A stretch of DNA of 64,000 nt from a virus (Duplodnaviria; Caudoviricetes): the IMG/VR virus record IMGVR_UViG_3300042542_006078; one strand, written 5' to 3'. Position 1 is the stretch's first letter. Every line of letters begins with the position of its first letter. The notes beneath the pieces are model-generated. The model was not told where the DNA came from. It made no database searches and saw only the letters and a program-made list of their open reading frames with translations. Both the position numbers and the translations under genes were made by a program. This document shows positions 13,711 through 60,982 of the stretch, in pieces.

Positions 13711-13736
13711 CTTGAAAATCCGTCATTAGATGGCGG
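13711..13736 (+). repeat. Solitary CRISPR-repeat-like hairpin A
   Basis: CTTGAAAAT-CCGTC-ATTAGAT-GGCGG versus repeat CTTAGAAAT-CCGTC-N7-GACGG; 7 nt before ATG 13744. Confidence 0.65.
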
Positions 13737-13743
13737 GAGGCTT

Positions 13744-14211
13744 ATGTACCCTTATAAGCAACAGGTTTTGGATGAAATCGCAAAGGAAATGAAATCCTTG
13801 GGAGAGGTTCTTGTTCCTTTTAATTATCCCAAAATGCCTGTAGGCATCTGGGAGGATGATTTGGGAATATTCAAAGCAAGACAAGTCACAATCGACGGTT
13901 ACTCTCTTTTTTTGCATTACCAAAAATCGGATTATGACAATTATTTGATTGAAACTTTGCAAATACACAACCTCAAAAGCCCATTCCTTCCTTTTAATTT
14001 GATTTGTAAAATAGGAAGAAGATTCTTGGGAAGCAAAAATCTTTCCCTTATTGAAATTTACAAAGAACACAGGAAAATATACATTTGGTCATTATGTTCA
14101 GATAGGCAAGGAAAATCTATGCCTATTCCAGAACAAAACAACACAGAATCATGTGAATTTGAGGGATTGCAATACACTTATATGCAACCTCAAAATATTG
14201 ATTTTTTCTAA
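13744..14211 (+). CDS. Hypothetical protein
   Basis: 155 aa, SD GGAGG. Confidence 0.75.
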   Translation: MYPYKQQVLDEIAKEMKSLGEVLVPFNYPKMPVGIWEDDLGIFKARQVTIDGYSLFLHYQKSDYDNYLIETLQIHNLKSPFLPFNLICKIGRRFLGSKNLSLIEIYKEHRKIYIWSLCSDRQGKSMPIPEQNNTESCEFEGLQYTYMQPQNIDFF

Positions 14212-14312
14212 ACATGTAGTTCGGTTAGAAGATTTTTTCAATCAGTATTTAATCACAATATATACCCTTGTAGCGTCAACTCAGGACGCTTTCCTTTAAC
14301 GAGGGTCTAAAC

Positions 14313-14612
14313 ATGAAAAAGAAAAAAATTCAGTCTCTTATCATAGACCATTTAATGAAACATGGTCAGATTGAAATACTTTTACCAGATGGCGTTAAAT
14401 TGGAAATTGGCACAACACAAGAAAATCAAAAAGGCGAACTTGTTAGAAAAGACGATTACTGCTGGGTTATCACATCAAGGGAAGGAAGATCGACAAGTTT
14501 GGATGCTTACAACATGGGTCTTAGGTTCAACGATGATGAAAAGGTTCTTGTTTTTGAAGACAAGTTCATTGACCAAGAAGGCGATCACATCAGAAGATTT
14601 GATGTTGTTTAA
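14313..14612 (+). CDS. Hypothetical protein
   Basis: 99 aa, SD GAGG. Confidence 0.7.
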   Translation: MKKKKIQSLIIDHLMKHGQIEILLPDGVKLEIGTTQENQKGELVRKDDYCWVITSREGRSTSLDAYNMGLRFNDDEKVLVFEDKFIDQEGDHIRRFDVV

Positions 14613-14938
14613 TTAATGTGACCATTAATGTTAATTAATTTAAGTTGACCATGATGATTCAATAAAACCTCCAATGTCCCCTCGGCATAATTATTCTTGG
14701 GGGCTATTGGAGCATTGAACTCAATCCATATAAGAAATCCATTCGGAGAATAGTAAAACCTAGATATGGTTATTCTCACTCCTTTGTTTTTGATTTGTTC
14801 GCCAGATATAATTTCAAGGTGACTGGCATTTTCTTGTACTTGTTTAAGTGCATATGCCATCAACTTTGAACTGTCAATAAAGTGTGTCCAGTTGGCAATG
14901 AGGATTTTTTCCAATTTGTCAGCATCAAAAATGTCCAC
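14609..14938 (-). CDS. Hypothetical protein
   Basis: 109-aa ORF, GGAG upstream. Confidence 0.6.
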   Translation of the reverse strand: MDIFDADKLEKILIANWTHFIDSSKLMAYALKQVQENASHLEIISGEQIKNKGVRITISRFYYSPNGFLIWIEFNAPIAPKNNYAEGTLEVLLNHHGQLKLININGHIN

Positions 14939-14962
14939 ACTATCGCTCCATAGAGGTATGTC

Positions 14963-15217
14963 ATGAAAAAGCCTGAAGTATATCTAAAAGAGTTCTGCCT
15001 TAAACTTTCCGATGACAATCTTCGTTTCCTTCACGGCAGATTAAGCCAAAGACTAGGAGGAGATCTTGCCGAAGCTGTTGATTTTCTAGGCGGTATTCGT
15101 GAGATCGATAAGTGGTTTGCAACAGCTTCGACTTGCAATGACTTCTACGATATGGTAGATCATATCTTCTTCGCAGTGAATAAAGAACATGAGAAGAGAT
15201 CAGGGGTTGCTGCTTGA
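14963..15217 (+). CDS. Hypothetical protein
   Basis: 84 aa, SD GAGG. Confidence 0.7.
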   Translation: MKKPEVYLKEFCLKLSDDNLRFLHGRLSQRLGGDLAEAVDFLGGIREIDKWFATASTCNDFYDMVDHIFFAVNKEHEKRSGVAA

Positions 15218-15435
15218 TTAAGTACGCATTGCATCTAATTCCAATGAGCCTTGCTGGCATTGCTGGCTTGGCTCTTGGTTTTTGCTGGGGAAGATTTCAC
15301 GGCTATCGTGAAGGAGCCGCAGACACCATTATTATGTTCGACAGCTTTGACCGAGAAACAAATAAAAATGATGTTCGACGATTCAAAGAAAACAAAAAAA
15401 TCCTCGATATGTTCGCAGACCAAATTCCATATTGA
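15214..15435 (+). CDS. Small membrane protein
   Basis: N-terminal hydrophobic helix; coupled to previous gene. Confidence 0.55.
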   Translation: MIKYALHLIPMSLAGIAGLALGFCWGRFHGYREGAADTIIMFDSFDRETNKNDVRRFKENKKILDMFADQIPY

Positions 15436-15481
15436 AAACCCTGATTAATTTGCTATAATCAAAAAAAATCAAGAGGTCTTC

Positions 15482-29599: not shown

Positions 29600-29646
29600 T
29601 GATTGAATTAACTTTATAAAAAGGTGACGATCAGTAAGGAGGATTC

Positions 29647-29868: not shown

Positions 29869-29874
29869 CCAGAA

Positions 29875-29897
29875 AGGAATCCGTCACAAGATGACGG
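29875..29897 (+). repeat. Solitary CRISPR-repeat-like hairpin B
   Basis: AGGAAT-CCGTC-ACAAGAT-GACGG, perfect stem with 7-nt loop, 7 nt before ATG 29905. Confidence 0.7.
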
Positions 29898-29904
29898 TTA
29901 AGCT

Positions 29905-31122
29905 ATGCCTCGTCGCATTCATGAAGATTGGCAGCATTTCCGTGATGTAATTTCAGGGCGAATCAGAAAAGCCCTGAAAAAATTCATCAAGAGCGGACAG
30001 ATCGTCAAAAATCGTGGAAAAAATGGCAAGATTTCCATTAACATCCCGAAAATTGACATTCCTCATATTGTTTATGGAAATAGTGGCGAGGGAGTTGGAA
30101 GAGGGGATGGTAAAGAAGGAGATGTCATAGGCAAAGATCCGCAAAATGGCAAGGGAAAAGGCAATGGAGCAGGTCAAGGAGAGGCTGAAGGAATCACAAT
30201 CAATCTTGATTTGGAAGATGTCCTGAGGTTTATGCAGGACGAACTTCAACTCCCAAATCTAAAGAAAAAGCCAAATGAAATTTACGATGAAATTAAAATC
30301 AAGTATAACAATATCAGTCTGATAGGACCAGAATCTCTTAGGCACAATAGAAGAACTCTCATGCAGACCTTGAAGCGTCAGGCTGCTGAGGGAACTCTTG
30401 AAAAACTAAATCATGTTGCTGGAATTAAAGACCCAGTCAGAGTTCTACAGCCAATCAATGAAGATAAGAGATACAGACAATTTAACGAAATTAAAATACC
30501 AAGCAGTAATGCTTTGATTGTCTTTGCCCGTGACGGATCTGGTTCCATGGATCAGGCCAAGTGTGAAATCGTCAGTGATATGGCTTGGTGGATCGATGTT
30601 TGGATTCGTCGTTTCTATGATCGTGTTGATCGCCTCTATGTTTGGCATGATAGTGAGGCCATGGAGGTTGATGAAAATAAATTTTATAAATATCGATTCG
30701 GAGGAGGAACAAATTGCTCCTCTGCTCTTAAATTTATTTCCAAGCAATTTGAGAACAGATATCCTCCAGAAAAGTGGAACATTTATGTTTTCTACTTTAC
30801 AGATGGCGACAACTGGGGAGAAGACAATCAGATTTTCATTGATACTCTTGCCAATGATTTTAAGCCTAATGTAGTCAATTTTACGGGTATCACACAGATT
30901 CTCGCATCATCCTATTCTGATTCAATCAAGCATCATGTTGATGAAGCGATTAAACAAGGCAAGCTTGACAAGGATTGCGTCAGGACTGTTGCAATAGGTG
31001 GTAGTCCAGATGGAAGGTCTTTGTGGACAGCGCCAAGTTTGAGCGATGATAATAGGAATGAGCAAATCATGGAAGCAATTCAACAACTTCTAGGAAACCC
31101 AAGTAAACTATCAAGGGAATGA
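29905..31122 (+). CDS. yeaH: YeaH/YhbH (DUF444) vWA-domain protein
   Basis: MIDAS DGSGS, GGGTNCSSAL, YFTDGDN; DKRYR motif. Confidence 0.9.
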   Translation: MPRRIHEDWQHFRDVISGRIRKALKKFIKSGQIVKNRGKNGKISINIPKIDIPHIVYGNSGEGVGRGDGKEGDVIGKDPQNGKGKGNGAGQGEAEGITINLDLEDVLRFMQDELQLPNLKKKPNEIYDEIKIKYNNISLIGPESLRHNRRTLMQTLKRQAAEGTLEKLNHVAGIKDPVRVLQPINEDKRYRQFNEIKIPSSNALIVFARDGSGSMDQAKCEIVSDMAWWIDVWIRRFYDRVDRLYVWHDSEAMEVDENKFYKYRFGGGTNCSSALKFISKQFENRYPPEKWNIYVFYFTDGDNWGEDNQIFIDTLANDFKPNVVNFTGITQILASSYSDSIKHHVDEAIKQGKLDKDCVRTVAIGGSPDGRSLWTAPSLSDDNRNEQIMEAIQQLLGNPSKLSRE

Positions 31123-33321: not shown

Positions 33322-36300
33322 ATGATGTCTGATAATATTATTCTGCCTTACAACTCTAAACTTGCCCCCGATGAGCGTAAGCAAAGGCTTCTGAACGACA
33401 CATTCAATTGGTTTGATATGTGTAACGAAGTTTTTTTTGACTTCGTGAAGAATCTGTATGGCGGAGTGAAGCATGAACATTTGATTCTTGTGAATTTTGC
33501 CGAGAAACCCAAGAAGGTTAGCAATAGTAAAAAGCCTAAGAAAAAAGATCAGGAAGTCAACATTCATGTTGAGCCCAATCAAGCCGAATGGGTTGACAAT
33601 GCTTGTGCCACATTCTGGTTTCGATTGCAGGCAAAATCAACAGTACAATTAGACCAATCAGTCCAGACAGCAGAAGAGCGTATTCGACGATTTCGGGATT
33701 ATGCTGGTCACGAGCCATCATCATTTGCCAAATCTTATCTAAATGGTAATTATGATCCAGAGAAGACTGAATGGGTTGATTGCAGGCTTCTTTATGTCAA
33801 TTTTTGCCGTAATCTGAATGTCAACCTTGATGCGGACATTCGCACAATGGTCGAACACAATCTTCTTCCTGTTCTCCCCGGTCAGGATTTCAAAACCAAC
33901 AATGTATTCTCCAACATTTTTGGAGTAGGCAATAAGGAAGACAAGGGTCAAAAAACGAACTGGCTTAACACGGTCGCAGAAGGCCTTCAGTCCAAGGAAA
34001 TTTGGAATTGGGATGAGTATCGTGATTTGATATCAAGATCTACTGGATGCTCTACGGCAGCAGAACTGAGGTCTGAGTCGATTGGCAGGCCAAGCATGCT
34101 TGCAGTTGATTTTGCATCTGAGAAATCAGGCCAAATATCACAGGAATGGCTTGCAGAAAGGGTTAAGTCTTTTAGGGCAGCAGCTTCTCAAAAAAGCAAA
34201 ATCTATGACATGCCTAATCGTCTTGTTTTGAAGGAATACATTGCTTCAAAAATCGGGCCTTTCAAACTTGAAAGGTGGTCTGCTGCTGCCGTTTCTGCTT
34301 ATAAGGATGTCCGCAGCAAGAATAGTATCAATTTGCTTTATTCCAAGGAAAGATTGTGGCGATGCAAGGAAATTGCTCAGATTTTGGTTGATAATCCGCA
34401 GGTTGCTGAAGCCCAACAGATTCTTGTTAATTATTCTTCTGGTGATACCAATTCATTCACAGTTGAAAATCGTCACATGGGCGATTTGACTGTTCTTTTC
34501 AAGATTTGGGAAAAGATGGATATGGATTCTGGCATAGAACAGTATTCCGAAATTTATCGTGATGAATATAGTCGTGATCCAATTACAGAGTTGCTACGCT
34601 ATCTCTACAATCATAGGCATATTTCGGCAAAAACTTTTAGGGCTGCTGCAAGGTTGAATTCTCTTTCGCTGAAGAATGATCGTAAGAAAATTCACCCGAC
34701 TATCAGTGGTAGGACTAGCGTTTCTTTCGGCCATTCAACAATCAAGGGATGCATTACTCCTCCCGATCATATTGTCAAAAATCGAAAAGAGAATGCTGGA
34801 AGCACTGGCATGATCTGGGTTACAATGCAGCTTATCGATAATGGTCGATGGGCGGATCATCATATTCCTTTCCACAATTCTCGCTACTATCGTGATTTTT
34901 ATGCTTATCGTGCCGATCTACCGACTATTTCTGATCCTCGTCGTAAATCTTTTGGACATAGGATCGGCAATAATATTAGCGATACAAGGATGATTAATCA
35001 TGATTGCAAAAAAGCATCAAAAATGTATCTTCGCACAATCCAGAATATGACGCACAATGTGGCATTCGACCAGCAGACTCAGTTCGCTGTTCGTCGTTAT
35101 GCTGATAATAATTTCACGATTACGATCCAAGCTAGGGTTGTAGGGAGGAAATATAAAAAGGAAATATCAGTTGGTGATCGTGTGATGGGTGTTGACCAGA
35201 ATCAGACCACAAGTAACACATATTCTGTTTGGGAAGTAGTTGCTGAAGGGACTGAAAATTCTTACCCATATAAGGGCAATAATTATCGTCTCGTTGAGGA
35301 TGGATTTATTCGCAGCGAATGCAGTGGTCGAGATCAGCTTTCCTATGATGGTCTTGATTTTCAGGACTTTGCTCAATGGCGCAGGGAAAGATACGCATTT
35401 TTATCTTCTGTTGGATGTATTCTCAATGACGAAATCGAGCCTCAAATCCCTGTTAGTGCCGAAAAGGCAAAAAAGAAGAAGAATTTTTCTAAGTGGCGTG
35501 GTTGTTCTCTTTATAGTTGGAACCTCTGTTATGCATATTATCTTAAGGATTTGATGCATGAGAACTTGGCAAATAATCCTGCTGGATTCCGACAGGAAAT
35601 TCTGAATTTTATTCAGGGTTCTAGGGGCGTGAGGCTTTGTTCCCTTAATCACACTAGCTTCCGACTTCTCTCTAAAGCCAAGTCTCTAATTCATTCATTT
35701 TTTGGTCTAAACAATATCAAAGATCCTGAATCTCAAAGGGATTTTGATCCAGAAATTTATGACATAATGGTCAATCTGACACAAAGGAAGACCAACAAGA
35801 GGAAGGAAAAAGCTAATCGCATCACTTCTTCAATTTTGCAAATTGCCAATAGGCTGAATGTCAGTCGTATTGTGATTGAGAACGATTTGCCGAATGCAAG
35901 TTCCAAAAACAAGGCATCAGCCAATCAAAGGGCAACTGATTGGTGTGCTAGAAATGTATCTGAGAAATTAGAATATGCCTGCAAGATGCTTGGTATCAGC
36001 TTATGGCAGATTGATCCAAGGGACACATCGCACCTTGATCCATTTGTTGTGGGCAAGGAGGCTAGATTTATGAAAATAAAGGTTTCTGATATTAACGAAT
36101 ACACTATCAGTAATTTCAAAAAGTGGCATGCAAACATTGCTACAACAAGTACTACAGCACCTCTTTATCATGATGCTTTGAAGGCATTTTCTTCTCATTA
36201 TGGAATTGATTGGGACAATTTGCCAGAAATGAAGTTTTGGGAATTGAAGAATGCCTTGAAAGACCATAAAGAGGTGTTTATCCCAAATCGTGGTGGTCGC

Positions 36301-36423
36301 TGCTATTTATCGACATTGCCGGTGACTTCTACATCTGAAAAGATTGTTTTCAATGGAAGAGAGAGATGGTTGAACGCAAGTGATATTGTGGCAGGAGTTA
36401 ACATTGTGCTAAGATCAGTATGA
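33322..36423 (+). CDS. cas12i: Type V-I CRISPR effector Cas12i
   Basis: 1033 aa adjacent to the array; RuvC-I RVMGVDQNQ, RuvC-II IVIENDLP, RuvC-III ASDIVAGVNI; DQLSYDG and RGGRCYLST motifs; repeat 3' end has Cas12i2-type architecture (from memory). Confidence 0.93.
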   Translation: MMSDNIILPYNSKLAPDERKQRLLNDTFNWFDMCNEVFFDFVKNLYGGVKHEHLILVNFAEKPKKVSNSKKPKKKDQEVNIHVEPNQAEWVDNACATFWFRLQAKSTVQLDQSVQTAEERIRRFRDYAGHEPSSFAKSYLNGNYDPEKTEWVDCRLLYVNFCRNLNVNLDADIRTMVEHNLLPVLPGQDFKTNNVFSNIFGVGNKEDKGQKTNWLNTVAEGLQSKEIWNWDEYRDLISRSTGCSTAAELRSESIGRPSMLAVDFASEKSGQISQEWLAERVKSFRAAASQKSKIYDMPNRLVLKEYIASKIGPFKLERWSAAAVSAYKDVRSKNSINLLYSKERLWRCKEIAQILVDNPQVAEAQQILVNYSSGDTNSFTVENRHMGDLTVLFKIWEKMDMDSGIEQYSEIYRDEYSRDPITELLRYLYNHRHISAKTFRAAARLNSLSLKNDRKKIHPTISGRTSVSFGHSTIKGCITPPDHIVKNRKENAGSTGMIWVTMQLIDNGRWADHHIPFHNSRYYRDFYAYRADLPTISDPRRKSFGHRIGNNISDTRMINHDCKKASKMYLRTIQNMTHNVAFDQQTQFAVRRYADNNFTITIQARVVGRKYKKEISVGDRVMGVDQNQTTSNTYSVWEVVAEGTENSYPYKGNNYRLVEDGFIRSECSGRDQLSYDGLDFQDFAQWRRERYAFLSSVGCILNDEIEPQIPVSAEKAKKKKNFSKWRGCSLYSWNLCYAYYLKDLMHENLANNPAGFRQEILNFIQGSRGVRLCSLNHTSFRLLSKAKSLIHSFFGLNNIKDPESQRDFDPEIYDIMVNLTQRKTNKRKEKANRITSSILQIANRLNVSRIVIENDLPNASSKNKASANQRATDWCARNVSEKLEYACKMLGISLWQIDPRDTSHLDPFVVGKEARFMKIKVSDINEYTISNFKKWHANIATTSTTAPLYHDALKAFSSHYGIDWDNLPEMKFWELKNALKDHKEVFIPNRGGRCYLSTLPVTSTSEKIVFNGRERWLNASDIVAGVNIVLRSV

Positions 36424-36601: not shown

Positions 36602-37293
36602 CTCTCAATGCCTTAGAAATCCGTCCAAAGTTGACGGGGCAGAATTGCTGTGAGTATCCAAAATGGATTTGAGGCTCGCAATGCCTTAGAAATCCGTCCT
36701 TGGTTGACGGTGTCCTTCAGAGCGAGCAAAGTTTCCCAAGAAATACTCTCAATGCCTTAGAAATCCGTCCAAAGTTGACGGCGTGATTCCCTTGTGCAGA
36801 TTGGGCGGCACGGGCACTCTCAATGCCTTAGAAATCCGTCCAAAGTTGACGGCTGATCTCCATTTCTGATTGACGGGCATCAGCGGCACTCGCAATGCCT
36901 TAGAAATCCGTCCAAAGTTGACGGGACAGCGGACCTAAAGCGATGGCGAAAAACTTACAAACTCGCAATGCCTTAGAAATCCGTCCAAAGTTGACGGTCG
37001 TAATAGAGGGGGACTGTTGCCCCGTCCTCAATTGCTCGCAATGCCTTAGAAATCCGTCCTTGGCTGACGGGAAACTGGTTGATATGCTATCGATTCGAGT
37101 GTATTTCTCGCAATGCCTTAGAAATCCGTCCAAAGTTGACGGGTTAGGTGTCATCCCGATCCATCCTACAGGTTGGAGACCTCTCAATGCCTAAGAAATC
37201 CGTCCATAGTTGACGGACGGTACTCTGATAAGGACTGCCAGAACCCAACCGATAGTACTCTCAATGCCTAAGAAATCCGTTCAAAGTTGACGG
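36602..37293 (+). CRISPR. CRISPR array: 10 repeats of 36 nt, 9 spacers of 35-41 nt
   Basis: Consensus CTC(T/G)CAATGCCTTAGAAATCCGTCCAAAGTTGACGG; repeats start at 36602, 36675, 36746, 36817, 36889, 36962, 37035, 37107, 37181, 37258. Confidence 0.99.
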
Positions 37294-42607: not shown

Positions 42608-42636
42608 TGAATACCGTCATCTTATGATGGGTTTAT
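42608..42636. repeat. Degenerate repeat-like hairpin C
   Basis: Plus strand TGAATA-CCGTC-ATCTTAT-GATGG; minus strand ATAAAC-CCATC-ATAAGAT-GACGG, 22 nt before ATG 42591. Confidence 0.45.
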
Positions 42637-45852: not shown

Positions 45853-45906
45853 TTTTTGAAAGACTTGAAAAGAGTGGTCTTTTAATGTAAACTGACCAGA
45901 GATTCC

Positions 45907-48660: not shown

Positions 48661-48704
48661 TAAACTCATCATATATTAAAAAAACGGTATAAATAGGAAA
48701 ATAT

Positions 48705-49752: not shown

Positions 49753-49844
49753 TTTTGTTTGTCATATATAAATTAATATTTGAATATTCTTTTTGGAATA
49801 TTAAAGGCAACTGAAAAATATTGTCATAATAAAAGGAAAGCAAC

Positions 49845-51402: not shown

Positions 51403-51480
51403 TGTCAACTACTCCCAAGATTTGATTTGTACTTTTTTTTTATGCAATTTTTGCATATAATTGATTCATCTTTCATTTAG

Positions 51481-52047: not shown

Positions 52048-52456
52048 AATCGTTGTTTTGGGTTTGTGGTTGCTCATAGCTTTGGTTTTGATTTTTAGAT
52101 CTAAAGAATCAACTCAATTTGTTCCTCCAATAAGTGAGCAACCATCAAACCTTTTGTCAAAGAAATATGATGTCAAGAAGATAACTGTTATTGATGGAAA
52201 CACATTTGATTTGAGCATTAGAAATTCTCTTTCTGAAGATTTAATGGCAAGAATTTTGGGAGAAATTCCTCTCAAGGCCACTATTGATGCGAAGAAGAAG
52301 GTGATTGAATTATTGAACAAAGTAGAAAATCCAATTGTTTTTCTTGATAAGAAATTAGATAATGGCAAATGGATTATTGAAATAAGTTTTTCTTTGGAAG
52401 GTAAAGATATTCAATTAACTTCATGGATGAAAGAAAACAATCTTGTTTACAATTAA
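52004..52456 (+). CDS. Membrane-anchored SNase-like OB-fold protein
   Basis: N-terminal TM; ITVIDGNTF. Confidence 0.4.
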   Translation: MLLTEEKVFKSKIIEIVVLGLWLLIALVLIFRSKESTQFVPPISEQPSNLLSKKYDVKKITVIDGNTFDLSIRNSLSEDLMARILGEIPLKATIDAKKKVIELLNKVENPIVFLDKKLDNGKWIIEISFSLEGKDIQLTSWMKENNLVYN

Positions 52457-52468
52457 CTCTAATGCATT

Positions 52469-52657
52469 ATGGAACAAAATTTTATAATTAGATGTCACAA
52501 ATGTCGTTGGGCCAGACTTTCTACTGGCCTGACTGATGATCTCAAGGATTTGGCTGAAATTAAAAAGTGTGAAACATGTGGTTTTACTCGTACATTCAAG
52601 TGTCCTAGATGTGGTCTTCCTGCAAAGATGACAAGAATTAAGAGAAACAATGCATGA
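52469..52657 (+). CDS. Zinc-ribbon protein
   Basis: CHKC, CETC, CPRC. Confidence 0.7.
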   Translation: MEQNFIIRCHKCRWARLSTGLTDDLKDLAEIKKCETCGFTRTFKCPRCGLPAKMTRIKRNNA

Positions 52658-53826: not shown

Positions 53827-54977
53827 TTTCTGTAGTTGATTTTTTGAAGAGAGCCGCTGATCGAAATGGATTCATAAGGGATCGCTACGAAGAGAAGAAG
53901 ATTCCTACTGATTTCACAGGGATTAGTGTTCTTCCTTTCTTTGGCGACTTAAGAAATTTGACAGTTCTTTCTTCTTATCTTTTGCATCGTTACCGCAATG
54001 AGGTTAGAGGCTCAAAGTACTTTATAGTAGCATCGTGGCCGGGATTCCAAGGCCTTTTTCCTTACGCTGACGAGTATTGGTCATTGAACGATGATTCAAT
54101 AATAAGGAAATTTTATGAACGATCAGAAGGCATGAGAAACAAGTCAGATTTCTCATCAACCTTTATTCGCAATTTCAATGAATTCTTCAGGGATGTAATT
54201 GATGCCAACGAATTGCAAAAATATTATAAAAATGGCTTCACAAATCAATATTTTGAAAAGTTTACTGACACTAAGAGATTTTTGCCATTTATTCCCAGTT
54301 CAACAATTATAGGCAGAGATTTCAATAAGTTTTTAATGACAAAGTCGGGATACAAGGTTTTTATACATCCTTCAATTTACGGAAAATTTTGGCACAATGG
54401 AATAAGTGATAATGTAAAGGCAAACAAAGATTTTTATATTGGATTGGCTAAATTCCTTCTTAAGAAAAACATCACTCCTGTTATTTGGCAAAATTACTTG
54501 TCCTATGACATATCTGACGAGCTTGACGACAAATGTATTTATATTAAGGAAAATGATATTGTTAAAGTTTTGTCTGCAATGAGGTCTTCTGATTGTGTTT
54601 TGGATATATTTAATGGAATATCAAGACTTGCGATGATTGCTAGGAGTCCTTTTGTTTGTGTCGATGAAAGGTCTAGGTATTTTGGAACCAAAGAGTTAGA
54701 AATAGACAGTTTGAGCGGAAGCAAGATACCCAAGCAATATATTTTTTCGTTTTCTACTATCATAACAAGTGGCGATATTGGTTTGTGGACGAGTGATATT
54801 TATCAGACGATTTATCAAAAGATGGAATCGTTTCTTCCAGAACTAAATCGAGACGATTGGCCTTCTACTGCGGAATCTTATGAAAATGTGCCTTATGGAG
54901 AATTTGTGCAGCCGCAGAAGACCAAGAAATTAGGAACAAGGTTTATAAAGGTTTCGTCTGAAGACGAAATAAGATAG
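53811..54977 (+). CDS. GT-B/GT9-like glycosyltransferase
   Basis: FGDLRNL, SDCVLDIFNGISRLAMIARSPFV. Confidence 0.55.
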   Translation: MEEHVISVVDFLKRAADRNGFIRDRYEEKKIPTDFTGISVLPFFGDLRNLTVLSSYLLHRYRNEVRGSKYFIVASWPGFQGLFPYADEYWSLNDDSIIRKFYERSEGMRNKSDFSSTFIRNFNEFFRDVIDANELQKYYKNGFTNQYFEKFTDTKRFLPFIPSSTIIGRDFNKFLMTKSGYKVFIHPSIYGKFWHNGISDNVKANKDFYIGLAKFLLKKNITPVIWQNYLSYDISDELDDKCIYIKENDIVKVLSAMRSSDCVLDIFNGISRLAMIARSPFVCVDERSRYFGTKELEIDSLSGSKIPKQYIFSFSTIITSGDIGLWTSDIYQTIYQKMESFLPELNRDDWPSTAESYENVPYGEFVQPQKTKKLGTRFIKVSSEDEIR

Positions 54978-54988
54978 AGGACAAAAAA

Positions 54989-55276
54989 ATGGCTTGTAAA
55001 GTTGAATTGCGTGATCTTCCTTCTAATCCGAGTTGGTACGAGAAGGAGATTGCATTCAAAAAAATGTTCACTGCATTTAAGAAACAGGTTGCAGAAGCTG
55101 GAATTCTGCATGACTACAAGGCTAGGGAATTTTATGAAACTCCCGGCGAAGAGAGAAGAAGAAAGAAAAGAGAGGCCGAAAATGTGCGCCTAAAGGAAAA
55201 GTTGCGTGAGAACTTTCCTGAGAGACGCAAGCCCAAGAAGTCCGACAATAAGAAAGCAAAAACTAAAGGTGAATAA
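54989..55276 (+). CDS. rpsU: Ribosomal protein bS21
   Basis: FKKQVAEAGILHDYKAREFYETPGEERRRK. Confidence 0.85.
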   Translation: MACKVELRDLPSNPSWYEKEIAFKKMFTAFKKQVAEAGILHDYKAREFYETPGEERRRKKREAENVRLKEKLRENFPERRKPKKSDNKKAKTKGE

Positions 55277-55539
55277 TGACTGCTAAAAAAGGAACCATTA
55301 TGAGCTTGAGTGTCGATCTCGACATTCAGGAAAAAATGAAGGCTGTTGCTAAAAAAAGGAATATTAGTGTTTCTAAATTAATTCGTGATTTGGTTGAAAA
55401 GAATTTGCCAAATGTCGATGAAGATGTTGATGTCGTTGTATTCAAGGTTCCTGTTGAAATGAGAGTTTCTTCTGAAAGTCTAAAGCAATGGCTATCAGTT
55501 CGTGTTGATGCTGTAGTTAAGGCGCTTACCACTCCATAA
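55276..55539 (+). CDS. Ribbon-helix-helix DNA-binding protein
   Basis: MSLSVDLDIQEKMKAVAKKRNISVSKLIRDLV. Confidence 0.75.
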   Translation: MTAKKGTIMSLSVDLDIQEKMKAVAKKRNISVSKLIRDLVEKNLPNVDEDVDVVVFKVPVEMRVSSESLKQWLSVRVDAVVKALTTP

Positions 55540-55561
55540 TAAGAGGCAGTTAAATTCCGTC

Positions 55562-56074
55562 ATGACTCAATCAAGCATGAAATTTTCCGACCCGTTAAAA
55601 ATAGTCGCAGTCGCAGATATTCCAAAGGCCATGGATGTGCCTTTGGATAATCTAATGGCGATTTTTCGATTGTGTAATAAAATGGAAAAAATCTGCGACG
55701 AAAATAATGGCATAGGACTGTCCGCAAACCAATTGGGCATTCCTTGGAAATTATTTATTGTAAAAAGAAACAGGACTTTTGAATATTATTTGAATTGCGA
55801 TTATATCGGAGAAGGCGAAAAGATGAGATCAGTTGAAGGATGCCTTTCTCTAAGAAGCGAATCTGGTGAATTTAGAAGATTTGAAGTTGAGCGTTTTTCC
55901 AAAATAAAGCTTAATGGCAAACAGTTGATTATATCTGGAATGCCTTCTTTGGTTTTGCACGATGTCAGCAGGCAAGAAAAAGATTTGTTTGCAGTTGTTT
56001 TTCAGCATGAAATCGATCATGGTTCTGATAAACTAATTTCGGATATTGGGAAAGAAGTTGAAATTTCTGATTGA
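55562..56074 (+). CDS. def: Peptide deformylase
   Basis: GIGLSANQLG, EGCLS, QHEIDH. Confidence 0.92.
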   Translation: MTQSSMKFSDPLKIVAVADIPKAMDVPLDNLMAIFRLCNKMEKICDENNGIGLSANQLGIPWKLFIVKRNRTFEYYLNCDYIGEGEKMRSVEGCLSLRSESGEFRRFEVERFSKIKLNGKQLIISGMPSLVLHDVSRQEKDLFAVVFQHEIDHGSDKLISDIGKEVEISD

Positions 56075-56094
56075 AATCTCGGAGTGAATGAGCG

Positions 56095-56373
56095 ATGTTG
56101 AGTTTGAAGCAGCTAAAGGATGTTTGTCTTGTTGACGATGTAACACATCGTCGCTGCCGCTATTTGTCACAGGACGACAACGATAGAAACAAATTTTATT
56201 GCATGAAAATTTCTGCCAAAGCCGAAAAGATTGATGAAGAAATTGACTCGTATGTGCATTCAATGCACATGAAAGGCAAGAATATTCATGCCGACAATCT
56301 GCCTTTGGGAGATAATTGTGGTGGCTATCCATTGCTCAGGCATATCGAGCAAGGTTACGATCAAAAAAATTAA
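56095..56373 (+). CDS. Hypothetical Cys-containing protein
   Basis: 92 aa. Confidence 0.65.
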   Translation: MLSLKQLKDVCLVDDVTHRRCRYLSQDDNDRNKFYCMKISAKAEKIDEEIDSYVHSMHMKGKNIHADNLPLGDNCGGYPLLRHIEQGYDQKN

Positions 56374-56861
56374 TTTGATTGAAGTCTTTGCTTAATTAAT
56401 TCATAGATGTCTTTTGCTCTATTCTCTTCGGCAGCAATAGACAATATTTCGGTTTCAAATTTCGGGCTGTTAAAACGGGCAATTTCTCTTGCCATGAGTT
56501 CGCCAGTCTTTTCGCTCTTAATTGCCCTGTCACGATAATAGAATAAAAACATACCGACGACAACTATTGCGAATACAAAAATTAATGCACCATCTCCTTG
56601 AATTATTTGAATTCCTGTATTTTCATTGCGTGAAATTGCAGAGTTGATGTTCACCAAGCCGCTTTGAATTTCTTTGAGTTTACTGTTATTGACTTCCATT
56701 TCTTGACGCAATTTACCAATTTCAGCCATTATACCATTTTGATTTGTTCGTATATCCTCTATTTTACCGCTTTTATTTTCAATCTTTGGATTATTCCGTG
56801 GATTGAAGTTTGCACATCCTGACAAAAATATCAGAGCGATCAAAAAAATGAATTTTTTCAT
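56370..56861 (-). CDS. Lipoprotein with coiled coil and downstream TM (candidate unimolecular spanin)
   Basis: Lipobox LSGC at residue 16; TM ALIFVFAIVVVGMFLFYY. Confidence 0.6.
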   Translation of the reverse strand: MKKFIFLIALIFLSGCANFNPRNNPKIENKSGKIEDIRTNQNGIMAEIGKLRQEMEVNNSKLKEIQSGLVNINSAISRNENTGIQIIQGDGALIFVFAIVVVGMFLFYYRDRAIKSEKTGELMAREIARFNSPKFETEILSIAAEENRAKDIYELIKQRLQSN

Positions 56862-56977
56862 GTTAATTCTCCATTTTATGTATCGTCATGTAAGGGTTTT
56901 TATGATATTTGGATGGTAGTTGAAAAGATTTTTTACTTTGGCACGATAACGGGGTACTTGTCATTTTGGATGGGTAA

Positions 56978-56997
56978 AGCAATCCGTCACAAGATGG
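56978..56997 (+). repeat. Degenerate repeat-like hairpin D
   Basis: AATCCGTCACAAGATG is identical to site B, then G; equals B minus GAC; 16 nt before ATG 57014. Confidence 0.45.
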
Positions 56998-57013
56998 AAG
57001 TATAGAGGTAATC

Positions 57014-57508
57014 ATGAGCAAGGATGTTCTTATGTTTCCTTTTAATTCACGCAATGAGTCATCAAAAGTTGTCCACAGCTTGCTTGATGGGCTTGTGGAT
57101 TATTCTGAGTCATCAAAAGATGATGATCTTGTCAACAATCAAATTGTCGAAGAATTTAAGCAGAATGCAAAAAATTTGGCTATAAAGTATGCCTCTGAGT
57201 ATTTCAAAGGCAAGAGTCTTTATGTTGGCGGCAAAATTACGGAACAGATTTTGATTAACGATAAAATAATTTCCACCATACTGAACTCAGATATGTTGAG
57301 CAGCATCGACAAAGCGCATGGTGGCATAAATGGTAACGAGGACTTGGTTTTCAAGACAAGTCTTGATGGTGTTGATGGTGGGGCAAAAATGATCATTGAT
57401 ATTTTGAATGATATTTCACTATCCCCTTTTCGCATACCCAAGGAATTCGCTGGTGGCATTTTGTTGTTGCATTTAGAATTAGTTGAGGGGGTTGTTTTTG
57501 AATCGTGA
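57014..57508 (+). CDS. Hypothetical protein
   Basis: SD GAGG. Confidence 0.7.
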   Translation: MSKDVLMFPFNSRNESSKVVHSLLDGLVDYSESSKDDDLVNNQIVEEFKQNAKNLAIKYASEYFKGKSLYVGGKITEQILINDKIISTILNSDMLSSIDKAHGGINGNEDLVFKTSLDGVDGGAKMIIDILNDISLSPFRIPKEFAGGILLLHLELVEGVVFES

Positions 57509-57812
57509 CTTATTGCTTCTCAGCAGAGAATTTGACAATTATCAGCTTCCAAAGGAAAAGAAATACCTCCTGAATTATTTTGATTCGGTTATTCAGGAGG
57601 CATTTCTCAAATATTATTTTGTATTTCATGATTTTAAGAATTTCACGGATCATACTGGTATTTCTGTTCAGCCAAAGTGGTTGAAGAATTTGCATGAAAA
57701 ATTGCAAATTATTGAAAAAGCCCACAAAGAAGCAAAATTAAATTTTGATATGGCTGGTGTTTTAGAAATAGAAAATGGAAATTATAAATTTAACAAGCAT
57801 CGTAGTAAATAA
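57483..57812 (+). CDS. Hypothetical protein
   Basis: 109-aa ORF. Confidence 0.55.
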   Translation: MRGLFLNRDLLLLSREFDNYQLPKEKKYLLNYFDSVIQEAFLKYYFVFHDFKNFTDHTGISVQPKWLKNLHEKLQIIEKAHKEAKLNFDMAGVLEIENGNYKFNKHRSK

Positions 57813-57815
57813 TTT

Positions 57816-58046
57816 ATGGCACTTATATCATTCAAAGACTGGCGTAATAAATTTGACGAGGCTAGTCCCACAACTCGTTTGAGGGATGAGATCATGAGGG
57901 GCAATCACCCCATGTCAGCCGGTGTTGCGATGTCAAGATCAACTCCACATCCTGAATTTGTTAAGAAGGCAATTAAGGAATTTGGCACACCAGATCATCC
58001 TAAGAAAAAACGAAAAAGTAAGCGCAAAAAGAAAAAAGGTCAATAA
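57816..58046 (+). CDS. Candidate virion internal protein
   Basis: MALISFKDWR..FDEA; TAAATA 4 nt before ATG. Confidence 0.6.
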   Translation: MALISFKDWRNKFDEASPTTRLRDEIMRGNHPMSAGVAMSRSTPHPEFVKKAIKEFGTPDHPKKKRKSKRKKKKGQ

Positions 58047-58456
58047 TGCTGTCTTTTCACGAATGGAGAGCAAAAAGGCTTGATGAAGCTGCCAAAAAAG
58101 GTAAGCCAAAAAAGGCTCCTGTGGCAAGGCATGACATTGAAACATGGCTTAAGGAAATAGAAAGTCTTAAGAAAGACCTAGAAGAACTTAAAAAAGCCAA
58201 GAAAATAGCCGCTCAAAAACTCGCTAGACTGGCAGATATTGAAAAGCTTGATTCTAAGAAACCCGATTCTAAGAAACCCGATTCTAAGAAACCCGATTCT
58301 AAGAAACCCGATTCTAAGAAACCTGATTCTAAGAAACCTGATTCTAAGAAACCTGATTCTAAGAAACCTCTTAAAAAATATGTTTCTAAGAAGATTAAGA
58401 AAAAAGGCGACACAAGATTAAAAAATCCGTCAGAAATTGACAAAGAGAAAAAATGA
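58046..58456 (+). CDS. Lys-rich candidate virion internal protein with DSKKP repeats
   Basis: MLSFHEWR..LDEA. Confidence 0.7.
   Translation: MLSFHEWRAKRLDEAAKKGKPKKAPVARHDIETWLKEIESLKKDLEELKKAKKIAAQKLARLADIEKLDSKKPDSKKPDSKKPDSKKPDSKKPDSKKPDSKKPDSKKPLKKYVSKKIKKKGDTRLKNPSEIDKEKK
58250..58369 (+). repeat. 15-bp tandem repeat x8 (DSKKP)
   Basis: GATTCTAAGAAACCC x4 then GATTCTAAGAAACCT x4. Confidence 0.95.
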
Positions 58457-58497
58457 TGATTATTGCAAATGCGTATAATGTCTAAGATAACCAACGC

Positions 58498-59007
58498 TTG
58501 TTAGAAAGAAGATACTCTCTAAGAGCGAAAATAAGGGGCTATCTTATGTCAGAAGAATCTAGAATATCATCACAAGAAGATATAATTAACGATGTTGAAA
58601 AACAGAGTTTGAAAAATGCTCGGGAAGTTCATGGTAGTATTTCCATAATTCAAGCAGAACAAGAAACATATGTGATTGCAGTCGCAATTTGCTTAGATAA
58701 AAGCAAGAATTTTATCAATAAAATTAATTGCAAGCGTGGAGTACCCATTCAGGGTTATGTCTACGATGCCCAATCAGACAGTTACTTTTTAGAATGTAGT
58801 GATTTCTTGCATATTGGAATTATACCTGCATCATTTGTTGCAACATTCAAAAACTATAGTGGCTGGAAAATGTTTGTCCCAATGCCAGAAAGTGTAATTA
58901 AAAGGCACCTGAATGATTCTCAAAAGAAAGATTTGAAACAATTTAAGAATCATTTCAAGGCTGATGAATTCATTATAAATTTTATTCAAATGGTAAATCC
59001 AAATTAA
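58498..59007 (+). CDS. Hypothetical protein
   Basis: 169-aa ORF. Confidence 0.6.
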   Translation: MLERRYSLRAKIRGYLMSEESRISSQEDIINDVEKQSLKNAREVHGSISIIQAEQETYVIAVAICLDKSKNFINKINCKRGVPIQGYVYDAQSDSYFLECSDFLHIGIIPASFVATFKNYSGWKMFVPMPESVIKRHLNDSQKKDLKQFKNHFKADEFIINFIQMVNPN

Positions 59008-59031
59008 TTCCTCAATAAAATTCCAAAAAAT

Positions 59032-59481
59032 ATGAATTGCTTCCAGAAAAAAAATCTGCAAGAGAAAATAGAAAACCATGATTATTGGATGACCATGGCT
59101 TTTATGTTTGCTGTAAAATCTAAAACCAACCGTGCTTGCGTATTAGTCAACAATGCTAATAGATTGATATCTTATGGCATTGAAAATCCCCCTGAGTTTG
59201 CGGAATCAACCAAAATATTGATTCCAGCAGAAATACAAGCGATTATTGGATGCAAGAACGAAATCATAAATGCTAATCTTTATATAACCAGCCCTCCAAC
59301 TAGGGATTCTGCAATGACCATAATTGCATGTACGGGAATAAAATCTGTTTATTACTACCCAAAAGAAAACATAGATTTGGATGCAAAAAATAAAATACAA
59401 TGCGTCTTTGTAGATGTAAATGAATTGGAAACTAATTTGAATTGGACAAGAGATTATTTTGATTCCTTAGAACATAAATAA
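59032..59481 (+). CDS. dCMP-deaminase-fold protein without zinc ligands
   Basis: YWMTMA..AVKS, IPAEIQAI (HAE becomes PAE), PPTRDSA (PCxxC lost), GIKSVYY. Confidence 0.65.
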   Translation: MNCFQKKNLQEKIENHDYWMTMAFMFAVKSKTNRACVLVNNANRLISYGIENPPEFAESTKILIPAEIQAIIGCKNEIINANLYITSPPTRDSAMTIIACTGIKSVYYYPKENIDLDAKNKIQCVFVDVNELETNLNWTRDYFDSLEHK

Positions 59482-59485
59482 TTCC

Positions 59486-60310
59486 ATGGCATGTACATCT
59501 ACTGGTATTGGTTGTGGCTCCTCTTCTGTGCAAACTTGTCCTGATGAGTATGGTTGCATAAGCGGCAAATGCCCTGATTTTACAATAAGAAGACATGATA
59601 CCAAGCCTTTTTTCAAGGTGAAGGTCGAGGATTGTGACGGACCTCTTGATCTAACTGACTTGGTTTTAGAAGCAACTATGTGGGCCAAGGGCAAGCTTAA
59701 GGTTGCATTGGATCAGGATGATACTGTTTTGGCTTTCGCCGATAATATTGGTTTTAACCAAGTAATGCAGGGTGATGTGCTGATTATGGATCAGGCTAGG
59801 TTGCCGGAAAAAATGTTGGTCACAGGATTTGATGAAGTAAATCGCTTAGTTCATGTTCAAAGAGGTTATCACGGAACTCCAGTTCAAAACTGGAAGCGTG
59901 GAAATTCTGTTAAAATTATCAAGTTTACAAATGCTTCTTCTTCGACAGAAATGGTTTATCAAGATGTGATCAACATAGATGGAACTACTACAGAAAATGT
60001 TCTGACAGAAAGCTTTCTTGTTTATGAGTGGCACTCAGAGGATACATGTTTGCCGGGCTGCTACTATCTTGAGTTTAAGCTCATGAAAATGTTGGTTTTG
60101 GGAATAAACATGCAAACAACTGTTCCTAGCAATCAAATTCCAAGCAATCTCCTTCCTGATGGTGTTGTTCCAAGTTTCACAGACCCTTCTTTCACACCAA
60201 GTACATTTTCTTGTAGTATGGGAACTGGAATTGATTGGATAAGAAGATTCCCAGTTGATAAAGAAGGATTTTACATAAAAATCGTTGACACTATTACAAT
60301 TAATGATTGA
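59486..60310 (+). CDS. Probable virion structural protein (baseplate/tail, BppU-N-like)
   Basis: RRHDTKPFFKVKVEDCDGPLDLT; TAAATA 5 nt before ATG. Confidence 0.5.
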   Translation: MACTSTGIGCGSSSVQTCPDEYGCISGKCPDFTIRRHDTKPFFKVKVEDCDGPLDLTDLVLEATMWAKGKLKVALDQDDTVLAFADNIGFNQVMQGDVLIMDQARLPEKMLVTGFDEVNRLVHVQRGYHGTPVQNWKRGNSVKIIKFTNASSSTEMVYQDVINIDGTTTENVLTESFLVYEWHSEDTCLPGCYYLEFKLMKMLVLGINMQTTVPSNQIPSNLLPDGVVPSFTDPSFTPSTFSCSMGTGIDWIRRFPVDKEGFYIKIVDTITIND

Positions 60311-60335
60311 CATGAGAATTTTGTGGTGTTACATT
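60307..60335 (+). promoter_or_regulatory. Strong sigma70 promoter of infC
   Basis: TTGACA, 17 nt, TGn-TACATT. Confidence 0.75.
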
Positions 60336-60354
60336 TTTTTGGGGTCTATCTTTA

Positions 60355-60380
60355 CTTAGAAATCCGTCAATATTAGACGG
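60355..60380 (+). repeat. Solitary CRISPR-repeat-like hairpin E
   Basis: CTTAGAAATCCGTC (14-nt exact match to the repeat)-AATATTA-GACGG, 3 nt before ATG 60384. Confidence 0.8.
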
Positions 60381-60383
60381 GAA

Positions 60384-60944
60384 ATGAATATGAATCAAAA
60401 CAAGTTTACAAACGCAAATAATCGTCGTGAAGATCAAAACAGAGTGAACTGGCAGATAAGAGTGCCACAAGTTCGTGTTGTTCGTGACGAAGAACAACTC
60501 GGAATAATGCCGACTGATCAAGCACGAAAATTAGCAATGGACGAAGGTTTGGATTTGGTGGAAATAGCTCCAACAGCCAAGCCTCCAGTTTGCAGAATTA
60601 TGGATTATGGTCGCTTCAAATATGAACAGAATATCAAGAAGAAGGAAGCTTCTAAAAAACAGCGTGAGTCGCAAGTTCAACTTAAGGAAATAAGGCTTCG
60701 CCCTGCAATTCAGGAACATGATATTGAAACAAAATTGAATCAAGCGAAAAAGTTTTTGGAAGAAAAATGTAAGGTTCAGTTCAATTTAATTTTCAAGGGA
60801 TTCCGTGAGATGAACAATAAAGAGCAAGGCCACACGGTCATGCGGAAGATTGTTGAGCAAATTCAACAAGTAGCGATCATAGAGAAGTCACCTTCTATGG
60901 AAGGCAATAGAATAATATGCATAGTGTCACCGAAGGTTTCTTGA
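60384..60944 (+). CDS. infC: Translation initiation factor IF-3
   Basis: VRVVRDEEQLGIM, GLDLVEIAP, PPVCRIMDYGRFKYE, KEIRLRP, PSMEG. Confidence 0.95.
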   Translation: MNMNQNKFTNANNRREDQNRVNWQIRVPQVRVVRDEEQLGIMPTDQARKLAMDEGLDLVEIAPTAKPPVCRIMDYGRFKYEQNIKKKEASKKQRESQVQLKEIRLRPAIQEHDIETKLNQAKKFLEEKCKVQFNLIFKGFREMNNKEQGHTVMRKIVEQIQQVAIIEKSPSMEGNRIICIVSPKVS

Positions 60945-60959
60945 ATAAGGAATTAATTG

Positions 60960-60982
60960 TAATGTCCGTCATTTGTGGGCGG
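60960..60982 (+). repeat. Solitary repeat-like hairpin F
   Basis: TAATGT-CCGTC-ATTTGTG-GGCGG directly before ATG 60984/60996. Confidence 0.5.

Follow-up and report, generated by a model that had tools for sequence, protein, structure and literature searches.

The window analysed here, a stretch of 64,000 nucleotides (IMG/VR record IMGVR_UViG_3300042542_006078), belongs to a huge freshwater phage which carries its own CRISPR effector, Cas12i. Single copies of the CRISPR repeat are found outside the array, in front of genes, and the question is what they do there. Decoy activity against host CRISPR systems is known for solitary repeats in phages. What is new here is that the matching effector is phage-encoded and that, in several huge phages related to each other, the copies appear to lie within transcripts of the phage itself. 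If they act as decoys, RNA decoys in the warfare between CRISPR-armed phages would be new; if they act in cis, the recruitment of a CRISPR nuclease for phage mRNA control would be new. Cas12i is a well-studied genome-editing enzyme, and at stake is the sequence outside the stem that is needed for handle recognition.

The Cas12i Locus and Its Repeat

The cas12i gene (33322..36423, plus strand) encodes a Cas12i2-like protein of 1033 amino acids, which aligned with Cas12i2 (PDB 6LTP/6LTU) over residues 6–1030 with an E value of 1e-96, indicating full-length homology; the E value was 1e-52 with Cas12i1. Residues K18, H485, and H486, needed by Cas12i2 for pre-crRNA cutting (PMC7567891), were kept in the alignment as the motifs ERK (K18) and HH (H485/H486). 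The RuvC D (in GxDQNQT) and, in the second RuvC motif, the E were also aligned, the alignment shown ending before the third RuvC D. Judged by these processing and RuvC residues, the enzyme is probably competent. The type V-I array (36602..37293, plus strand) is composed of 10 repeats of 36 nt, separated by spacers of 35–41 nt. All 10 repeats contain AGAAAT-CCGTC/T-C..G-TT-GACGG, with CT instead of TT in one repeat and CCGTT in the stem of the last. The sequence-only reading was thus correct in that the repeat ends in AGAAAT-CCGTC-N7-GACGG, and the array adjoins the Cas12i2-like gene. This end corresponds to a 23-nt Cas12i2-type handle made of a 6-nt tail, a stem, a sixth pair, and a 2-nt bulge, the same architecture as described for Cas12i2 (PMC7567891).

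Solitary Copies in the Window

The sequence-only reading had reported six solitary copies of this element, each 1–22 nt upstream of a start codon. Its count of five occurrences of AATCCGTC on the plus strand outside the array was confirmed, for approximately 1.45 expected on both strands. A search for AGAAATCCGTC-N7-GACGG with up to three mismatches gave five non-array matches, and shuffled sequences gave 0.28 for all matches. Two covariance models were applied, of which R2 was trained on the relatives only, the other being R1.

Two copies are far beyond chance in the window. The best one, at 60355..60380 on the plus strand, consists of CTT followed by AGAAAT-CCGTC-N7-GACGG without any mismatch, the 23-nt handle beginning at 60358 (R1 score of 26.9 bits, E 8e-4; R2 E 0.003). 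Its hairpin was present in the minimum-energy fold and ended 3 nt before the ATG of the phage IF3 gene (60384..60944, plus strand; Pfam IF3_N 4.5e-30, IF3_C 5e-28). A sigma70-like promoter, TTGACA-17-TACATT with TG (60307..60335, plus strand, 10 of 12 consensus matches), placed the predicted transcription start approximately 16 nt upstream of the handle. The second copy, at 29875..29897 on the plus strand, shows an AGGAAT handle and a 6-bp stem, CCGTCA/TGACGG, with one mismatch (R2 E 0.1, hairpin supported by the fold); by simple arithmetic, about 0.0015 matches as good would be expected in 128 kb. It lies in the gap between PrkA and DUF444, 7 nt 5' of the ATG at 29905 and without a separate Shine-Dalgarno sequence. 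The DUF444 gene (YeaH-like by Pfam, 29905..31122, plus strand) belongs to a PrkA-DUF444-SpoVR operon spanning 27524–32719. No copy was found at the orthologous site of the three relatives G003, G004, and G005.

The other sites were of lower quality. The copy at 13711..13736 (plus strand, three mismatches), with a GAAAAT handle starting at 13714 and a CCGTC/GGCGG stem, is located 7 nt 5' of the ATG at 13744. It is plausibly a diverged copy of the repeat, with an R2 E value of 1.6 that is not significant alone. In its handle, a G is in place of A-23, the base required by Cas12i2 for cutting (PMC7567891). The site at 56978..57000 (plus strand), before gene 57014, is a decayed relic which has kept the 5' half and lost the 3' arm; it has 16 nt in common with the sequence at 29878, a hairpin was sought in its predicted fold and none formed, and the orthologous gene in G004 and G005 carries an intact copy. 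Between IF3 and the next gene, a weak hairpin without handle, CCGTC-N7-GGCGG (60960..60982, plus strand), was unmatched by either covariance model at E values up to 10 and was absent in G004 and G005. The doubtful site at 42608..42636 is flanked by two divergent genes, gene 42591-41815 (minus strand) and the tmRNA gene (42685–43038, plus strand). Read on the minus strand, it stands 22 nt before gene 42591-41815, with three mismatches and an A.C mispair; on the plus strand, it precedes the tmRNA promoter, and the "ATG" belongs to the TATAATG of this promoter and opens no ORF. The sites at 60960, 42608, and 58421 do not exceed chance. The six-site recurrence is thereby reduced to two strong copies, a plausible one, and a relic, and the proximity to a start codon stands for five of the six sites. 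The U.G wobbles reported to preserve the RNA stem were confirmed at 13714; at 60960 the stem, with a U.G wobble, is present and the handle absent.

The copies retain 23–26 of the 36 nt of the repeat (64–72%). Those of the window have diverged from the loop and the bulge of the array repeat, and among the bases read or required by Cas12i2, namely A-23, G-22, A-21, and the UU bulge, some are missing in most of them. Binding of Cas12i to the copies may be weak.

Copies in Related Phages

Ten further copies were present in relatives approximately 75% identical to the source phage. In the phage and its relatives (626 kb), 18 non-array matches were observed with up to two mismatches and none with the reversed pattern; the exact core occurred 11 times, for approximately 0.5 expected by simple arithmetic. 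The strong copies thus appear to derive from the CRISPR repeat, beyond chance. There were approximately 4–10 copies per genome fragment, nearly all of them located between genes and on the same strand as the next gene. A copy was common to lineages at only three orthologous genes, most positions being lineage-specific; the turnover of copy positions is fast.

Several copies stand alone. The copy at 145196 in G005 has a predicted promoter of its own and is directed, in antisense, toward the inside of an mscL-like gene. Those at 341 and 58853 in G003 are bordered by a stop codon on the 5' side and a hairpin on the 3' side, the second one resembling a handle followed by 41 nt and a terminator hairpin. 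A comparison with relatives devoid of cas12i had been suggested as a check. G003 keeps two well-formed, perfect copies without cas12i at the syntenic site, in a fragment estimated to be 21% complete; the gene may be elsewhere in the genome. A natural variant 99.4% identical to the source phage, in which cas12i is deleted, has kept the 29875 copy.

Orientation, Pairing, and Promoters

The flank formed by the handle is one-sided and agrees with the gene strand in all five decidable cases. Pairing is kept via G.U in seven of the nine singly substituted stems. The copies of the relatives keep the Cas12i2-type sixth pair as CG, UG, UA, or AU, and one terminal pair has changed from C-G to U-A, a compensatory change. 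The copies are oriented elements, not symmetric ones, and are probably RNA elements. In six of 21 copies, a sigma70-like promoter was observed with a −10 box ending 4–7 nt before A-23 (background 1.3%, P 3e-7), which places the predicted transcription start on the first base of the handle. The copies would thus lie in transcript leaders, and the transcripts probably carry the fold bound by the enzyme.

A Model for the Solitary Copies

We tentatively propose that the copies are mimics of the crRNA handle, derived from the phage's own repeat and acting in trans from within phage transcripts. They would represent a Racr-like variant of the viral solitary repeat units. In this model, the strong sites provide phage transcripts with the 3' 23 nt of the repeat, corresponding to the mature crRNA handle, in sense orientation. 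The RNA would present the Cas12i-binding stem-loop, onto which Cas12i would load. In a copy with A-23, G-22, A-21, and some upstream extension, such as that of IF3, the enzyme would cut just 5' of the handle, after which the downstream 20–30 nt would stay bound as a pseudo-guide. Phage DNA itself would be spared because the repeat, and not TTN, occupies the PAM position. The selected role would be mainly a competition for Cas12i loading, as with RNA anti-CRISPRs (Racrs). The opponents would likely be related phages armed with Cas12i and having a common handle, and the phage's own Cas12i might perhaps be tuned as well. The hairpin directly adjoins the start codon at IF3 and DUF444; there, an effect in cis on translation is plausible, and the translation block would likely be a side effect or a secondary function.

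A role in trans is favoured because stand-alone copies exist in G005 and G003, because copies shared by different lineages are limited to three orthologous genes, because G003 keeps well-formed copies without a syntenic cas12i, and because viral solitary repeats located directly after promoters have a precedent (PMC10651486). Against decoys, the cognate Cas12i is the phage's own, and this enzyme would be drained too. The replacement of the Shine-Dalgarno region by the two best copies would be better explained by a role in cis than by decoys alone. To our knowledge, the known Racrs are directed at host systems; the matching CRISPR system is here that of the phage itself and of its relatives. 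The matches listed for this repeat were single matches only, with no bacterial array among them, and a search for a rival's spacer against the source phage found none.

Viral solitary repeat units have been reported (Faure 2019, as cited in PMC10651486), and they were found directly after promoters, one Racr being co-transcribed with an acr gene (Camara-Wilpert 2023, PMC10651486). Like them, the present copies are single phage-borne repeats, located between genes and frequently just downstream of a promoter; RacrIC1 is on one transcript with the gene behind it (PMC10651486), and in both cases the Cas protein would be bound by repeat mimicry. They differ in that both the cognate effector and its array belong to the phage, and in their type, V-I, which goes unmentioned in the main text and the available supplements of PMC10651486. 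They also differ by their number of approximately 4–10 per genome fragment, by the restriction to the 3' 23–26 of 36 nt, and by the overlap of the best copies with translation-initiation regions, inhibition being only a candidate function here. SRUfinder (PMC10651486) calls a match at a repeat coverage of at least 90% and a partial match at 50–90%; the present copies, at 64–72%, miss the full-match level and would be partial matches. As SRUfinder also demands, they are intergenic, on a mobile element, and without a second repeat within 100 bp, except for a tandem pair in G004 (49391/49423) with a spacing of 9 nt.

Alternative Explanations

The sequence-only reading had proposed a control of chosen genes, in which the binding or cutting of their leaders by Cas12i represses, stabilises, or uncouples translation. 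We consider this possible and rather unlikely; decoys, which it had named as an alternative, are at least as likely. Its expected enrichment near start codons was found, the hairpin ending 3–30 nt before a start codon in 12 of 25 matches (background 5%, P 1e-9). IF3 and DUF444 have no separate Shine-Dalgarno sequence left and their copy-less orthologues have one. Because the hairpin replaces this region, ribosome access would very likely be blocked once Cas12i is bound. The conservation at three orthologous genes among phages approximately 75% identical, the presence of IF3 and a sigma factor among the downstream genes, and the predicted transcription start on the handle in six of 21 copies also argue for a role in cis. 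However, in a gene-dense phage nearly any sense intergenic element closely precedes a start codon, the downstream genes share no functional theme, and the lineage-specific positions, the stand-alone copies without a start codon behind them, and the DUF444 copy in the variant lacking cas12i do not fit. With only two window copies close to the repeat, the needed bases missing in most, and positions mostly unconserved, a window-wide, six-site regulon is not tenable; what stands is that the elements are apparently repeat-derived, oriented, and located in leaders, and that the cutting residues of Cas12i are kept.

T4 RegA is a small dedicated RNA-binding translational repressor with degenerate, AU-rich operators. 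By analogy, one phage protein could shut several mRNAs at their ribosome-binding regions; unlike RegA, the presumed binder here would be a CRISPR nuclease and the operator its crRNA handle. A moonlighting Cas12i that cuts, marks, and silences mRNAs (IF3, the DUF444 stress module, a sigma factor) in a RegA-like manner across a clade of freshwater huge phages has some, rather low, likelihood. For repeat-like units such as CreR/CreA/crlRNA and tracr-L, a role in directing Cas effectors to regulation instead of immunity has been proposed or shown (PMC10120712), and a solitary repeat is frequent in type V-A loci, next to cas12a (Shmakov 2023, PMC10120712). These units also lie outside arrays; in contrast with the present copies, which are up to tens of kilobases from cas12i, they sit in the cas locus and work by a partial match of guide and promoter beside a PAM, of which none was found here in 131 kb. 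Pseudo-spacer targets beside TTN were limited to seeds of 9–10 nt, none extending, in 131, 226, and 168 kb.

The copies could also be functionless relics, left over from array recombination or from old decoys and tolerated between genes, the weak sites being due to chance. The clear decay at 56978, the chance-level sites at 60960, 42608, and 58421, the divergent loop and bulge, and the fast turnover would agree with this. It is nevertheless improbable in view of the sense orientation in all decidable cases, the promoter at a fixed distance, the wobble or compensatory changes maintaining the stems, and three positions conserved over approximately 25% nucleotide divergence.

In type V systems, one repeat and the sequence following it make a complete crRNA. 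The copies might then produce single-repeat guides against copy-less alleles in rival phages or other targets. The 5' handle suffices for Cas12i (PMC7567891), the layout at 58853 in G003 fits such a unit, and virus-borne mini-CRISPR arrays directed against relatives are known (Medvedeva 2019, as reviewed in PMC11656645). According to this review, mini-arrays are likewise minimal viral CRISPR parts, serving conflicts between related viruses; they are made of repeat-spacer-repeat with spacers matching relatives, whereas a single repeat and no match were found here. The IF3 and DUF444 pseudo-guides and the G003 unit had no target in the viral collection or the loci searched, two 20-nt matches were in unrelated contigs, the orthologous sites of the relatives are too divergent for a pseudo-guide match, and the tandem pair in G004 is only 9 nt apart, so that guides of this kind are very doubtful.

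A palindromic DNA operator, CCGTCA-N5-TGACGG, bound by a dimeric protein at or after promoters and only secondarily resembling the repeat, was another suggestion of the sequence-only reading and is the least credible. In the window genome, eight sites do fit GTCA-N5-TGAC, with a distance of 11 bp between the half-sites, and several of them are positioned from +1 to +23 relative to predicted promoters. Against such an operator, the conserved flank, AGAAAT or AAT, is one-sided and always on the upstream side of the gene, the substitutions favour G.U, which pairs in the RNA of one strand only, and the match of the best copies to the repeat covers 14 nt that are not palindromic.

A marginal repeat-like hairpin was also visible in antisense orientation at 14273..14298 (minus strand; R2 score of 15.1 bits, E 0.63), in the gap before gene 14313, with a GCGTC/GACGC stem, a C-G sixth pair, and a TT bulge.

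The cas12i Gene and Its Array

The 1033-aa product of the ORF at 33322-36423 gave a full-length match to Cas12i2 (E 1e-96) and a weaker one to Cas12i1. In the alignment to Cas12i2, the pre-crRNA-cutting residues K18, H485 and H486, whose roles have been described (PMC7567891), were found in the phage protein together with two RuvC acidic residues. A CRISPR array of ten 36-nt repeats lies 178 nt beyond cas12i, at 36602-37293. The 3' 23 nt of the repeat read AGAAAT-CCGTC-N7-GACGG, with CCGTT in the last repeat, and by their sequence are the mature Cas12i2 crRNA handle. The loop was C-N3-G followed by a two-base bulge in all ten repeats (TT in nine, CT in one), which fits the solved Cas12i2 crRNA (PMC7567891), where the fold has six pairs, with a loop of 3 nt and a bulge of 2 nt.

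No array spacer found a target in the relatives analysed; two spacers had zero matches in the viral collection, and nothing in the GenBank phage collection matched the locus. The adjacent spacers 3 and 4 (36782-36888) were roughly two-thirds alike, as if aimed at variants of one protospacer, and the G+C content of the first nine spacers exceeded that of the phage (37%). Three tandem 23-nt AT-rich units (37316-37388) followed straight after the last, degenerate repeat.

Solitary Handles in the Window

The sequence-only reading had placed six solitary copies of the hairpin in front of start codons, at 13711, 29875, 42608, 56978, 60355 and 60960. Mismatch counts, covariance scoring, folding and an ORF check left two of these certain, one plausible, one a relic and two at chance level. 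The word AATCCGTC, said to occur at least five times on the plus strand apart from the array, was indeed counted five times there, with about 1.45 expected over both strands. The 16 specified handle bases, with up to three mismatches, gave five non-array matches, compared to 0.28 for all matches in shuffles. Covariance scores came from a model (R2) trained solely on the relatives' copies and then run on the window; it replaced a model of the array repeats alone (R1), which over-weighted the loop and scored diverged copies poorly.

The copy at 60358 (60355 with the CTT ahead of the cut site) was a perfect match (R2 E 0.003), its hairpin ending 3 nt ahead of the IF3 ATG. The copy at 29875, with one mismatch (R2 hit at 29872, E 0.1), sits in a 305-nt gap 3' of prkA and ends 7 nt ahead of the DUF444 ATG. 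These genes belong to a complete PrkA-DUF444 (YeaH)-SpoVR (YcgB) module (27524-32719, plus strand), conserved in the relatives G003, G004 and G005. The R2 E-values of 56975 and 13711 were 1.3-1.6, and the scan of the window with this model did not recover 60960 or 42608. Site 56978 had 16 nt in common with 29878; its 3' arm was gone and it did not fold. Eight near-perfect 15-nt tandem repeats were seen nearby (58250-58368), coding a pentapeptide repeat in the ORF 58046-58456.

At 42608 the supposed start codon was part of TATAATG and opened no ORF; the site precedes a tmRNA gene's promoter. Read on the minus strand, it is upstream of the gene 42591-41815 but has three mismatches and one A.C mispair. 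The tmRNA gene (42685-43038, plus strand; Rfam RF00023, 97 bits, full length) was absent from the ARAGORN output and has a TATAAT box about 35 nt upstream.

The copies of this phage mostly deviated from its own repeat at the bases that Cas12i2 reads (PMC7567891). Among them, AGA at -23 to -21 was kept only in 60358 and in the copy on L007, another contig from the same sample. The TT bulge was kept in none, and most read CCGTCA-N5-TGACGG.

Copy Numbers in Related Phages

G002 (IMG/VR, 80 kb) was 99.7% identical to window positions 51361-64000 and added 67 kb, so that counts for this phage cover 131 kb of its genome. Two further contigs, G004 (225 kb) and G005 (168 kb), both from one related phage, are syntenic at about 75% identity; they encode a Cas12i with 42% identity to that of the window (tblastn) and have an array whose handle is the same. 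G003 (101 kb), also syntenic, has 2.5 kb of other genes in place of cas12i and the array. In the search for Cas12i phages, a single-protein query found no relatives and a two-sequence alignment retrieved only G004 and G005; a protein search gave nine homologues, all on contigs of at most 11 kb, too short to count solitary copies.

Over this phage and its relatives there were 18 non-array matches at up to two mismatches and 25 at up to three, with two sites counted twice where G004 and G005 overlap; a reversed-pattern control gave 0 and 4, respectively. The related phage had 10 unique sites with up to two mismatches in about 276 kb; this phage had 4 in its 131 kb and a further one on L007. The exact palindromic core occurred 11 times, with about 0.5 expected by arithmetic. 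In bacterial genomes, the matches listed were all single, and about 280 chance matches were expected by arithmetic. A metagenome scan returned chance singles for the most part.

Anatomy and Predicted Promoters of the Copies

In 12 of the 25 matches, the start of the longest ORF lay between -6 and +29 nt from the hairpin end (background 5%, P 1e-9). Of nine stems with a single substitution, seven still paired by way of a G.U wobble; this gave P 1e-4 relative to all substitutions and 0.09 relative to transitions alone. Among stem cells of the relatives' copies, 95% were paired; the sixth pair varied between CG, UG, UA and AU, and C-G had become U-A at one terminal pair. ACGG(A) directly follows several relatives' copies (L008 301, G005 123596, G004 213404, L214 and G003 58853), echoing the 3' arm as GACGG-ACGG; it may be a trace of copy origin or an alternative pairing.

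At 6 of 21 copies (background 1.3%, P 3e-7), the -10 box of a sigma70-like promoter, scored at 9 or more of 12 matches, ended 4-7 nt ahead of A-23, the first handle base. Transcripts from these predicted promoters would have A-23 of the mature handle as their 5' end. For IF3, a strong promoter-like site lies 22 nt upstream of the copy instead, and the RNA is predicted to keep an extension of about 16 nt with the U|A cut site intact. In four metatranscriptome runs (contigs only), seven short pieces fell on 44001-64000 and none covered a solitary copy, and no RNA data set came up for the IF3 region; this has no bearing on expression. The phage was seen in sequencing runs of 15 studies. In the 67-kb extension, a sigma-70 family gene (L052 17320-18231) lies behind a diverged copy placed exactly after a TTGACA-17-TATTCT promoter.

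Turnover and Stand-Alone Copies

A gene-by-gene orthologue comparison found a copy common to lineages at only three genes: 57014, about 93147 in the extended sequence, and a gene on L007. The IF3, DUF444 and 13744 copies were absent from G003, G004 and G005, and several G004/G005 copies were absent here. The downstream genes (IF3, DUF444, a sigma factor, an amidoligase, small unknowns) had no common theme.

By their position, some of the relatives' copies cannot act on a start codon. The perfect copy at G005 145196 has its own promoter and is encoded antisense at the 3' end of a channel gene like mscL (L079 5160-5630, minus strand), within the last 20 codons of that gene. Those at G003 341 and 58853 follow stop codons, with hairpins next downstream. 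The segment G003 58853-58950 (L056 18853-18950), a copy with a compensated stem, 41 nt and a strong terminator-like hairpin, has the look of a one-guide unit.

Both G003 copies were well formed, with the loop of the published Cas12i2 crRNA, and there was no cas12i at the syntenic site of this fragment, although the gene may lie elsewhere in that genome. In the 99.4%-identical metagenome contig L244 (Ga0114976_10011172), a natural variant, a 3.7-kb deletion against window 33395-37112 fuses cas12i codon 25 to the eighth array repeat and leaves the 29875 copy undamaged. Identity falls to 96% beyond the deletion junction. The variant shows that lineages losing cas12i do arise.

Possible Roles

Solitary repeats after promoters in viruses and RNA anti-CRISPRs (Racrs) are established (PMC10651486, PMC11656645), and so too are solitary repeats next to cas12a and, within cas loci, regulators that resemble crRNAs (PMC10120712); type V-I systems have been reported on phages (PMC7162821). 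In this literature we found no description of type V-I solitary repeats, nor of many copies in transcripts of a phage encoding the cognate effector.

Under all readings, the predicted RNAs likely present a Cas12i handle. We tentatively rank first a Racr-like selected role in trans, in which the solitary copies would compete for Cas12i loading. It is placed first because some copies stand alone, positions turn over quickly and copies persist in G003, and because viral solitary repeats have an experimental precedent; one such repeat shares a transcript with the gene that follows it (PMC10651486).

The regulon first proposed, in which Cas12i would act in cis on the leaders of downstream genes, comes second; it is possible though rather doubtful, and is not exclusive with competition in trans. 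The IF3 and DUF444 copies took over the Shine-Dalgarno region that orthologues have and end at 3-9 nt (IF3) and 7 nt (DUF444) from their start codons, where a 120-kDa protein on the leader hairpin would almost certainly exclude the ribosome. However, copy positions are mostly lineage-specific, downstream genes share no theme, and this phage's copies mostly depart from its repeat at bases that Cas12i2 reads. The stand-alone copies of G005 and G003, and those kept in G003 and L244, also weigh against it.

It is unlikely that the copies are relics. Still less probable is their use as targeting crRNAs against rivals. The 20-mer pseudo-guide behind the IF3 copy had two matches, both in unrelated contigs (one preceded by TTG) and both judged to be chance, and that behind the DUF444 copy had none in the viral collection. 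The G003 58853 unit matched only itself, and partial PAM-flanked targets within the genomes gave nothing beyond 9-10-nt seeds. Least probable of all is a palindromic DNA operator: a core-only search, blind to the flank, found the AGAAAT-like flank on a single strand, which was the strand of the following gene in all five decidable cases, and this one-sidedness argues against a symmetric operator.
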